Origin: a virus
Taxonomy: Duplodnaviria > Heunggongvirae > Uroviricota > Caudoviricetes
Reading direction: 5' to 3' (one strand)
IMG/VR virus record: IMGVR_UViG_2869930542_000005
DNA length: 7,666 bases
Of this stretch, positions 3,001 through 6,000 are shown one piece after another. Made by a program: the position numbers. Each line of letters opens with the position of its first letter. The stretch's first letter is position 1.

Positions 3001-6000
3001 CCGAACGCAAGAAAGCTGAAACCAGAATGAAGGAGGTTAAGCATGACTGGTAAACGCACTCTCCCCACCATGACACACGACGAAATGGCAGCCAAATGGA
3101 TGGAAGACCCGGCTTTTAAAGCAGAATACGACGCTATCGCTGACGAATTCGCACTGCTTGATGAAATGCTGGCAGCACGCAAAGAAGCTGGCTTAACTCA
3201 GGCTGAAGTTGCCGAGCGAATGGGAACAAAAGCGACCGCGATCACCAGAATGGAAAGTAATCTCGCATCAGGTATCAGCGGCCCATCATTTGCCACCCTA
3301 AAAAAATTCGCCCGCGCTACTGGAAAAAAACTCCAGATCCGCTTCGTTTAACCACACCGCGCCGTCATTCTGGCGGCGCACCGGATAAATAGCCATTTCC
3401 TCGCACGATGTCTTAGCCACCGGATATCCCACAGGTGAGCCGTGTAGTTGAAGGTTTTTACGTCAGATTCTTTTGGGATTGGCTTGCGTTTATTTCTGGA
3501 GCGTTTCGTTGGAAGGTATTTGCAGTTTTCGCGGATGATGTCGGTGAAACTTCGTCGCTGTCGCCTCATTCATACCTCCTGTCGGTAAATCTGACACCCT
3601 GACCAATAGCCCAGGCTGTTGTGTACTCGATCAGACTTGCCATGCGCTTCACGCTCATCTGCGCGCTGCTTTCGCGAATGTTGACGCATTCTCCTTCAAG
3701 GCCGGGCAAAACATCAGCTTCCTGTTTTGTTGCCACTGCATGACCGCTGATCAACAAAACCTTCCATTGTTCTGGTTTTAACCATTTGCCGCACCATTGA
3801 ACCTGACGAGCGATATCCGCCAGCATCGCGTGAAATTTTGCGTTCTGGTCAAGATTTCGCTTGTAGTCAGTAATGCGGATGGTGACTGGCTTGTCTTTAT
3901 CGAGAGGAGTTGAGAGGATGGCATTTATTGCGGCTTGCTGTTGTTGCTTAGTTCGGAGGAAGATTGTTTGCTTCATCGAAAATTCTTCTCTTTAATTCCA
4001 GCGGCTCTGATAGCTTTCATTACTGCAATTACCGTTTTGTCTCTCCCATCCTCATAACTGAGGTGTACTGGCAATAGCGGACACTACCATTTGTTCTTTT
4101 TTTAAGCACAGCCATCTGATGATATTTTTCCCTGAAGGCTGCCGGGGAGATATTCCCCAGACGAGAGTGACGACGCTGACGATTGTAGAAAATCTCAATG
4201 TATTCCCGTATTACTGAGATGGCTTCATCCCGGTTATTAAAACGATAGTGGCTCAGGCTCTCATTTTTCAGCGTTCCCCAGAAGCTTTCCATCGGAGCGT
4301 TGTCGTAACAGTTACCTTTACGCGACATTGATGTTTTCAGACCAAACTGCTCCTGTATGACCCGGTAATCGTATGCGCAGTACTGTGAACCTCGATCAGA
4401 GTGGTGGATTAGCCCGGCAGGTGGGCGCTGGCTCCTGAGCGCCATAAACAGGGCTTTACCTGTCAGCTCTTTTGTCATGCGCTCTCCCATGGCGTAGCCG
4501 ACAATTTCGCACGTATAAACATCTTTGATGCCAGCGAGGTACAACCATCCCTCCTGTGTGGCAACATACGTCAGGTCCGCCACCCAGACCTGATTTGGTG
4601 CTGTAGGAGCGAACGTCTGGTTCAGCAGATTTGGCGCAACTGGCAGATTGTGGTTCGAGTTCGTAGTCGCTCTGAACTTGCGTTTCTGCTTACAGCGTAG
4701 CCTTAGCTCCTTACGAAGACTGAGGTAGCCTGAGTTTAACGGACACTCCTTCCTGAAATAGAATGGCATCAGAAGGAGCTAATAATGAGCAGAAAAACCC
4801 AACGTTACTCTAAAGAGTTCAAAGCCGAAGCTGTCAGAATGGTTCTTGAAAATCAACTTTCGATCAGTGAAGGCGCTTCCCGATTATCCCTTCCTGAAGG
4901 CACTTTAGGACAATGGGTTACCGCCGCCAGAAAAGGGCTCGGTACTCCTGGTTCCCGCACGGTGGCTGAACTGGAATCTGAAATTCTGCAACTGCGTAAG
5001 GCGTTAAATGAAGCTCGCCTTGAGCGAGATATATTAAAAAAAGCAACAGCGTATTTTGCACAGGAGTCGCTGAAAAATACGCGTTAATCGAACAATGGCG
5101 ACAACAATTTCCCATTGAAGCGATGTGTCAGGTATTTGGTGTATCCAGGAGCGGTTATTACAACTGGGTACAGCATAAACCCTCAGACAGAAAACAAAGT
5201 GATGAGCGACTAAAACTGGAGATTAAGGTGGCACATATCCGCACTCGCGAAACATATGGAACCCGGCGGCTCCAGACGGAGCTGGCAGAGAATGGCATCA
5301 TCGTTGGTCGTGACCGACTGGCACGTCTGAGGTGTACTGGCAATAGCGGACACTACCATTTGTTCTTTTTTTAAGCACAGCCATCTGATGATATTTTTCC
5401 CTGAAGGCTGCCGGGGAGATATTCCCCAGACGAGAGTGACGACGCTGACGATTGTAGAAAATCTCAATGTATTCCCGTATTACTGAGATGGCTTCATCCC
5501 GGTTATTAAAACGATAGTGGCTCAGGCTCTCATTTTTCAGCGTTCCCCAGAAGCTTTCCATCGGAGCGTTGTCGTAACAGTTACCTTTGCGCGACATTGA
5601 TGTTTTCAGACCAAACTGCTCCTGTATGACCCGGTAATCGTATGCGCAGTACTGTGAACCTCGATCAGAGTGGTGGATTAGCCCGGCAGGTGGGCGCTGG
5701 CTCCTGAGCGCCATAAACAGGGCTTTACCTGTCAGCTCTTTTGTCATGCGCTCTCCCATGGCGTAGCCGACAATTTCGCACGTATAAACATCTTTGATGC
5801 CAGCGAGGTACAACCATCCCTCCTGTGTGGCAACATACGTCAGGTCCGCCACCCAGACCTGATTTGGTGCTGTAGGAGCGAACGTCTGGTTCAGCAGATT
5901 TGGCGCAACTGGCAGATTGTGGTTCGAGTTCGTAGTCGCTCTGAACTTGCGTTTCTGCTTACAGCGTAGCCTTAGCTCCTTACGAAGACGTGCCAGTCGG

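Follow-up and report, generated by a model that had tools for sequence, protein, structure and literature searches.

Two genes of the lambdoid nin region, ninB and ninE, lie side by side on the minus strand of a 7,666-nucleotide stretch of DNA (hereafter, the window) from the IMG/VR virus record IMGVR_UViG_2869930542_000005, assigned to the Caudoviricetes. They are accompanied by several insertion sequences (IS), a predicted toxin-antitoxin (TA) cassette, and an incomplete integrase gene. A preliminary description, made from the sequence alone, presented the pair as an isolated remnant of a phage early region. We scanned the open reading frames (ORFs) of the window with Pfam and PHROGs profiles and compared its DNA with phage records (by megablast), E. 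coli genomes, and NCBI assemblies.

The ninB-ninE pair and its boundaries

The ninB gene (3566-3976, minus strand) is intact and encodes a 136-aa protein of the Orf-family of recombination mediators, which matches Pfam PF05772 over its full length (positions 1-131 of 131, E=2.5e-56, 189.5 bits for a cut-off of 23.8) as well as phrog_72 (E=6.8e-53). The ninE ORF (3348-3569, minus strand) contains the complete PF05322 profile (1-58 of 58, E=9.9e-41, 137.9 bits) and its product is, by sequence, a member of that family, but its length of 73 aa is atypical for proteins expected to end at about residues 56-63: the 58 canonical codons come first and are followed by 15 others added by the loss of a stop codon (see below). 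An ATGA overlap (3566-3569) joins the stop of ninB to the start of ninE, and a second one (3973-3976) joins the start of ninB to the stop of an upstream gene fragment. This fragment, orfX (3973-4058, minus strand), consists of 27 codons and a stop (3973-4056) plus two further nucleotides, and matches phrog_343, a family of unknown function. The translation of 3973-4056, YEDGRDKTVIAVMKAIRAAGIKEKNFR followed by the stop, recurs unchanged at the C-terminus of a 110-aa protein whose gene immediately precedes ninB in the Stx-converting phage Stx2a_WGPS6 (AP012539). Phage homology ends at 4058, and the right inverted repeat of IS600 (TGAGGTGTACTGG...) starts exactly at 4059. At the opposite end, ninE converges with a predicted antitoxin gene, the stop codons of the two (3348-3350 and 3349-3351) sharing two nucleotides.

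A megablast search with 3348-4058 matched 416 phage records, and those listed all start at query positions 47-50 (window 3394-3397), so that homology to phages without a TA cassette runs from 3394-3397 to 4058. Neither the ORF listing nor the Pfam scan of the window revealed a repressor, cro, replication, Q, lysis, or structural gene. Much of the preliminary description is borne out by these data: it had reported an intact and translationally coupled pair, an upstream gene cut by an IS at 4059 with about 27 codons still coupled to ninB, overlapping convergent stops, and the absence of repressor, cro, O/P, Q, lysis, and structural genes from the window, and it had placed the homology breakpoints near 3400 and at 4058/4059.

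Additional searches concerned function and expression. Pfam recognised no family in two Stx2a_WGPS6 proteins, the 110-aa one mentioned above and a 57-aa one encoded downstream of ninE, and NCBIfam yielded nothing above its curated cut-offs for six phage proteins. A promoter and terminator scan of 2500-4100 gave calls at chance level only, with no terminator called in the spacer between ninE and the antitoxin gene; a hairpin of -17.6 kcal/mol can be folded in this spacer, to which we give no weight.

Loss of the ninE stop codon

The similarity between the NinE protein of the window and that of lambda, which is 60 aa long, extends through residue K58. When E. coli genomes were searched with 2600-4058, we found prophages carrying toxin, antitoxin, and ninE together, at 98.7-99.4% identity. 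Two of them, in E. coli FDAARGOS_943 (locus L002) and E. coli RMDEC465 (locus L015), have a NinE annotated with 58 aa, and the codon at 3393-3395, TGG in the window, is TGA in both. The window reads AAA TGG CTA TTT ATC CGG where FDAARGOS_943 reads AAA TGA CTA TTT ATC CGG, with identical DNA beyond this point, and RMDEC465 also has AAA TGA CTA at the ninE stop. Judged from these alignments, the C-terminal divergence of NinE is a single-base stop loss (A-to-G on the coding strand) and not a rearrangement breakpoint. The 15-codon extension thus exists because one substitution removed the stop, and the length of 73 aa is a derived allele.

Collinearity with an apparently complete prophage

Downstream of ninB, window positions 896-3569 form one single alignment of 2,680 nt, at 96.9% identity, with the nin region of the lambdoid prophage of E. 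coli RMDEC465 (NZ_CM177019.1, about 5,040,300-5,081,000), with which they are collinear. This prophage lies beside yfaT (DUF1175)-yfaA-gyrA and is apparently complete, although it bears IS66 and IS4 insertions: it contains cI, cro, cII, replication, Q, lysis, terminase, head, and tail genes, and its order is replication genes, ninB, dam, ninE, TA cassette, roi, ant, DUF1364, RusA, Q, tRNAs, lysis, terminase, head, and tail. It shares with the window the same int (98.2% identity), the same chromosomal side, and the same ninE-antitoxin-toxin-roi-ant block in the same order. The differences are that RMDEC465 keeps the early, immunity, replication, late, lysis, and virion regions, a NinE of 58 aa ending in TGA, and a dam gene between ninB and ninE, and that its ant gene is followed by DUF1364/RusA, whereas the window has a fragment of an HNH endonuclease there.

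The upstream part of the window segment resembles a different group of phages. In Stx-converting and HK-type phages (Stx2a_WGPS6, H-19B, HK620, and HK97-like phages), orfX, ninB, and ninE are adjacent and coupled through ATGA, with roi and ant downstream of ninE, and the DNA of Stx2a_WGPS6 is 96.4% identical to window 3397-4058, ninB included. These phages differ from the window in having no TA cassette, a single CCGGATA motif in its place, and a different NinE C-terminus (63 aa, ending ...RARNTRGLT). Lambda is more distant: it has homologues of NinB and NinE, but also ninC and ninD between the two genes and ren upstream of ninB, and it lacks the TA cassette, roi, and ant.

Gene orientation is likewise shared with intact relatives. 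The nin genes of the window are on the minus strand and int on the plus strand, which is the lambda arrangement viewed from the opposite strand: lambda has int on its minus strand and the genes from ninB to Q on its plus strand, pointing away from each other across 11.8 kb that contain the early region. Displayed in the orientation of the window, RMDEC465 has minus-strand nin genes and a plus-strand xis/int; 18.1 kb, which include the IS66 and IS4 insertions, separate ninB from int. Since the window is collinear with an intact relative, deletion alone accounts for its layout; one deletion explains it and an inversion is unnecessary.

A toxin-antitoxin cassette between ninE and roi

The DNA that separates the window from TA-less phages is a cassette (2665-3380, plus strand) that behaves as an insertion or deletion relative to them and is enclosed by two direct repeats of the 7-bp sequence CCGGATA (2658-2664 and 3381-3387). 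These repeats are 723 bp apart in the window and in the prophages of FDAARGOS_943 and RMDEC465, in contrast with Stx2a_WGPS6, where one copy is found and the cassette is missing. This suggests that the cassette was gained or lost through the short repeat. CCGGATA also occurs at 1526, 1929, and 3420, so that its chance occurrence is not negligible.

The cassette encodes a HigB/RelE-like toxin of the Gp49 family (2724-3053, plus strand; 109 aa; PF05973, E=1.4e-25; phrog_2523, E=2.6e-45) and a HigA-like helix-turn-helix (HTH) antitoxin (3043-3351, plus strand; 102 aa; PF01381 HTH_3, E=3.4e-11). The former is identical in 108 of 109 residues to an RMDEC465 protein named RelE/ParE family toxin in RefSeq, and the latter is identical to its RMDEC465 counterpart in all 102 residues. 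The two genes overlap by 11 nt (3043-3053) and, by both domains and operon structure, correspond to a type II, HigBA-like module. As in other modules of this type, the toxin gene precedes the antitoxin gene and overlaps it, the toxin being a small protein of the RelE/ParE superfamily and the antitoxin a protein with an HTH domain; the predicted module of the window differs from them in its location, as a moron within the nin region of a phage, where it converges with ninE. By comparison with its relatives, in which it is already present between ninE and roi, the TA pair is a 723-bp moron-type cassette and not a product of decay. Because apparently complete prophages have the same cassette and repeats, homology with TA-less phages breaks off at an ordinary moron boundary, located 13 nt past the canonical ninE stop.

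The remainder of the nin region and the IS1 boundary

Beyond the cassette, the window contains an intact roi-like gene (1726-2403, minus strand) whose 225-aa product combines an ORF6N domain (PF10543, E=2.3e-20) with a P22AR C-terminal domain (PF10548, E=3.4e-28) and is identical to the RMDEC465 homologue in 222 residues. It is followed by an intact ant-like antirepressor gene (929-1651, minus strand) of 240 aa, with a Rha N-terminal domain (PF09669, E=1.2e-9) and a KilAC/ANT domain (PF03374, E=1.6e-33; phrog_63, E=7.5e-98), 218 of the 240 residues being shared with the RMDEC465 protein. Toxin, antitoxin, roi-like, and Ant proteins each have the same length as their RMDEC465 counterparts, without internal stops. 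A purely mechanical reading of the roi ORF gives 287 aa, reaching 2589, i.e., 62 codons upstream of the annotated start; this extension weakly resembles PHROG transcriptional regulators and the Ash family (PF10554, E=0.0015). At DNA level, the 2404-2664 region is 75% identical to a stretch of Stx2a_WGPS6 with a 57-aa ORF and a partial antirepressor pseudogene, and is possibly the relic of another small regulator gene.

Homology to RMDEC465 starts at 896. Where that prophage has DUF1364/RusA after ant, the window has the N-terminal fragment of a NUMOD4/HNH homing endonuclease (753-891, minus strand; PF07463 NUMOD4, E=1.8e-7; phrog_59 HNH endonuclease, profile positions 139-181 of 423), cut by an IS1 element. 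The corresponding 53-aa ORF (730-891) has its final 22 nt inside IS1. This IS1 (1-752, minus strand) runs past the window start and is the left boundary of the phage DNA; Zn_ribbon_InsA and DDE_Tnp_IS1 Pfam matches are recorded for the corresponding genes, and window 1-749/752 is 99.2-99.3% identical to IS1 copies elsewhere in the S. dysenteriae loci. What is left of the nin region thus spans 753-4058, from the HNH fragment, cut by IS1 at 752/753, to the orfX tail.

The IS600 block, the IS911-like stub, and the truncated integrase gene

The genes on either side of the IS600 block lie 18 kb apart in the RMDEC465 prophage, so that the block marks a deletion junction bounded by IS. It comprises three segments. 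The first (4059-4720, minus strand) goes from the right inverted repeat to IS position 605 (1266 to 605, including the C-terminal part of orfB) and is 99.7% identical to the annotated IS600 of FDAARGOS_943; the second (4721-5327, plus strand), inverted relative to the first, goes from the left inverted repeat to IS position 607 (1 to 607); and the third (5328-6593, minus strand) is a complete 1266-bp copy between direct GTC trinucleotides (5325-5327 and 6594-6596). Identities to IS600 elements annotated in RefSeq are 99.4-99.7%, and the terminal inverted repeats could be read. The total length is 2 x 1266 + 3 bp, since IS positions 605-607 (GAC/GTC) are present as an inverted duplication in the first and second segments, where GAC adjoins a left and GTC a right inverted repeat. 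Target duplications of 3 bp are visible around the FDAARGOS_943 copy (GTT/GTT) and around the third segment (GTC/GTC). By contrast, the outer flanks of the block, AAC (4056-4058) and GTC (6594-6596), or CAC in other S. dysenteriae genomes, share no target duplication, as expected if the IS joins two unrelated breakpoints.

The first and second segments carry the single-nucleotide polymorphism (SNP) alleles of the resident IS600 copy of a S. dysenteriae strain (locus L010), whereas the third is distinct (T47, C1005). These two alleles, absent from the other segments, together with the exact length, rule out the extra IS600 as an assembly artefact. The block looks like the outcome of IS600 transposing into or next to its own copy, and two models of this kind were considered. 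A nested insertion followed by a flip through homologous recombination across the 607-bp inverted repeats fits the length and the 605-607 duplication but predicts neither the CAC-to-GT change at the junction with the neighbouring element (see below) nor the GTC around the third segment; an attack by a tandem IS dimer junction, which fits the length and the inverted 605-607 duplication, also fails to predict either of them. The orfB frame of IS600 has no stop inside the element and reads through the right inverted repeat (...QYTS) into the flank. In both cases this read-through (4029-4061 and 5298-5330) covers 10 codons, which lie in the phage fragment for the frame at 4029 and in the other IS600 piece for the one at 5298.

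Between the IS600 block and int lies a remnant of the left end of an IS3-family, IS911-like element (6596-6659, minus strand; 64-66 nt), which truncates int and is itself cut by IS600. Perfect (100%) matches to it occur thousands of times in E. coli genomes; in one of them (locus L017) the same sequence lies just upstream of the start of an IS3-family transposase, the adjacent ORF beginning with the reverse complement of ATGAAAAAAAGAAATTTCAGC. The element is presumably IS911. The lambda-type integrase gene (6660-7666, plus strand; PF00589, E=7.6e-42) lacks its first 22 codons: homology to the RMDEC465 int begins at nt 68 of that gene, the Arm-DNA-bind_1 match begins at profile position 27 of 74, and the 351-aa ORF listed for it uses a GTG start at 6611, inside the IS remnant. 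It is best called a pseudogene.

FDAARGOS_943 (NZ_CP065615.1; L002 13904-15060, L014 3966-5122) carries a related prophage, nearly complete, in which two IS600 copies in direct orientation, one inside ninB and one inside an ant gene next to xis, enclose the entire early region. By analogy, this prophage may represent the state that precedes the deletion, given that recombination between its two IS600 copies would delete the early region and leave a similar remnant.

Occurrence in Shigella dysenteriae type 1

The exact 73-aa NinE was found on 24 contigs, and the ten places listed are all NCBI assemblies with this same locus. Three of these, CP000034 (Sd197), CP061527 (HNCMB 20080), and CP026782 (08-3380), appear under S. 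dysenteriae type 1 in PMC7819885. The genomes of this type, among them Sd197 and HNCMB 20080, match window 1-4720 and 5327-7666 at 99.7-99.98% and have in common with it the 73-aa NinE, the orfX fragment, the IS1 boundary, and the truncated int, which in the S. dysenteriae loci adjoins MagC/DUF2138/gyrA. They differ from it in having a single 1266-bp IS600 between orfX and int, whereas the window has the equivalent of two, one of them split and partly inverted. Strain 08-3380 (CP026782; L008 7060-14109) has unrelated chromosomal genes on the int side of IS600, and another IS600 interrupts its ant gene; rearrangement mediated by IS600 has thus recurred at this locus. The Stx prophage of S. dysenteriae type 1 was rejected as the source, as it is found between sapC and ycjW (PMC7819885) whereas the prophage of the window is beside gyrA.

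Probable origin and decay of the prophage

We consider it very probable that the window represents what decay has left of a lambdoid prophage from the S. dysenteriae type 1 lineage, integrated originally beside yfaT-yfaA-gyrA, the middle of which was deleted at insertion sequences. In the orientation of the window, the ancestral prophage would have had, from the left, late genes, Q, the rest of the nin region, ant, and roi all pointing leftwards, toxin and antitoxin genes pointing rightwards, and again leftwards ninE, ninB, replication genes, and cro, followed by cI, N, and other genes up to xis and int pointing rightwards, and then the host chromosome. A deletion at IS elements would have taken out all the DNA that began within the gene upstream of ninB and ended at codon 22 of int, i.e., xis, recombination genes, N, cI, cro, cII, and replication genes (~12-18 kb), leaving a junction now held by IS600 and the stub of the IS911-like element. 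The IS1 at 752/753 would have removed all that was downstream of ant, namely the rest of the nin region, Q, and the lysis and structural genes. In addition, one substitution turned the ninE stop from TGA to TGG, adding 15 codons that run through the spacer into the end of the TA cassette. That the immunity, replication, and late regions were lost at IS elements is soundly inferred, and since pR and N are gone, ninB and ninE would now be without their native promoter.

Some observations weigh against this reconstruction. In the collections searched, no relative has orfX, ninB, ninE, and the TA cassette contiguous at high identity: RMDEC465 and FDAARGOS_943 have the dam gene between ninB and ninE, and the phages in which ninB and ninE are adjacent carry no TA cassette. 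The ancestor must therefore be deduced as a mosaic of known modules instead of being directly observed. The way in which the deletions formed also leaves a choice, as recombination between two IS copies or transposase-mediated adjacent deletion could both have produced them. Last, the junction between IS600 and the IS911-like stub reads CCTCA/GT/CTGTG in the window and CCTCA/CAC/CTGTG in other S. dysenteriae genomes, a difference that no simple model derives.

Alternatively, the int fragment and the nin segment might come from two different prophages fused by IS600-mediated recombination. The numerous IS-bounded inversions of S. dysenteriae type 1, of which 42 have been reported (PMC7819885), would make such a fusion conceivable, as would the replacement of the int side of the same IS600 by unrelated chromosomal genes in strain 08-3380 and the fact that the ninB/orfX module of the window resembles Stx phages and not RMDEC465 at this position. 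However, swaps between ninB and dam-ninB modules are normal lambdoid mosaicism, and the RMDEC465 prophage alone holds both the same int at the same site and the ninE-TA-roi-ant block, in the same order and orientation. A chance pairing of the two is unlikely, and we regard the fusion as improbable. Still less probable is the view of the preliminary description, in which ninB and ninE were an isolated island, all that remained of the early region, rearranged on both flanks and inverted relative to int through the flanking IS copies. It has in its favour the 5' flank, truly cut by IS600, the arrest at 3394-3397 of the homology to lambda, HK97-like, and Stx phages without the cassette, and an IS-rich locus with one inverted IS600 segment. 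Yet the nin region runs ~2.6 kb further than ninE, with four more intact ORFs and the HNH fragment, and the 3' flank is collinear with an apparently complete prophage over the whole of 896-3569, which refutes a rearrangement on that side. The divergence of NinE from lambda, which is real after K58, comes from the one-base stop loss. As to the layout, nin genes that point away from int are the rule in lambda and RMDEC465, so the claimed departure from lambda order is refuted, and of the deletion or inversion events that had been invoked at the flanking IS only deletion is needed. That description had further hinged on the NinE-like protein and its 3' context not being full-length and syntenic in intact phages: the context is syntenic with RMDEC465 over 2.68 kb, while the 73-aa length itself is peculiar to the derived allele.

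The NinE tail could also be imagined as a chimera, generated by the TA cassette inserting into, or recombining with, the 3' end of ninE. It is true that cassette DNA (3348-3380) encodes the final 11 codons of the extension, and that the cassette junction (3380/3381) is just 13 nt past the canonical stop. Nevertheless, prophages with an identical cassette and an identical spacer keep the TGA stop and a 58-aa NinE; the insertion of the cassette therefore left ninE unaltered and the later A-to-G change did it alone. The alignment with FDAARGOS_943 rules this origin out, leaving it a practically negligible probability, and the stop loss in an already TA-bearing prophage is the explanation we retain.

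Implications for annotation and for the biology of the locus

Several features of the window deserve to be annotated according to their history: the 73-aa NinE as a stop-loss allele, int as a pseudogene that is truncated at its 5' end and joined to an IS stub, and the 53-aa NUMOD4 ORF as a fragment. More generally, a break in homology at the end of a conserved phage gene can reflect a mosaic or moron boundary combined with a point mutation and not a rearrangement, and gene orientation relative to int has to be judged against the prophage map.

More speculatively, the HigBA-like cassette may work as an addiction or anti-phage module and thereby maintain the block of six intact ORFs between two IS elements (ninB, ninE, toxin and antitoxin, roi, and ant) throughout S. 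dysenteriae type 1, and, as a separate matter, the IS600 that is split and inverted may be the trace of an attack by the element, through its transposase, on a copy of itself. We hold both ideas to be rather unlikely, but if the former were true, the cassette would shield its flanks from deletion. Otherwise, the remnant is ordinary, previously sequenced and annotated, with no sign of a new kind of system. Its significance is mostly one of annotation, and the locus is a classic example of how insertion sequences erode a prophage in a Shigella genome.

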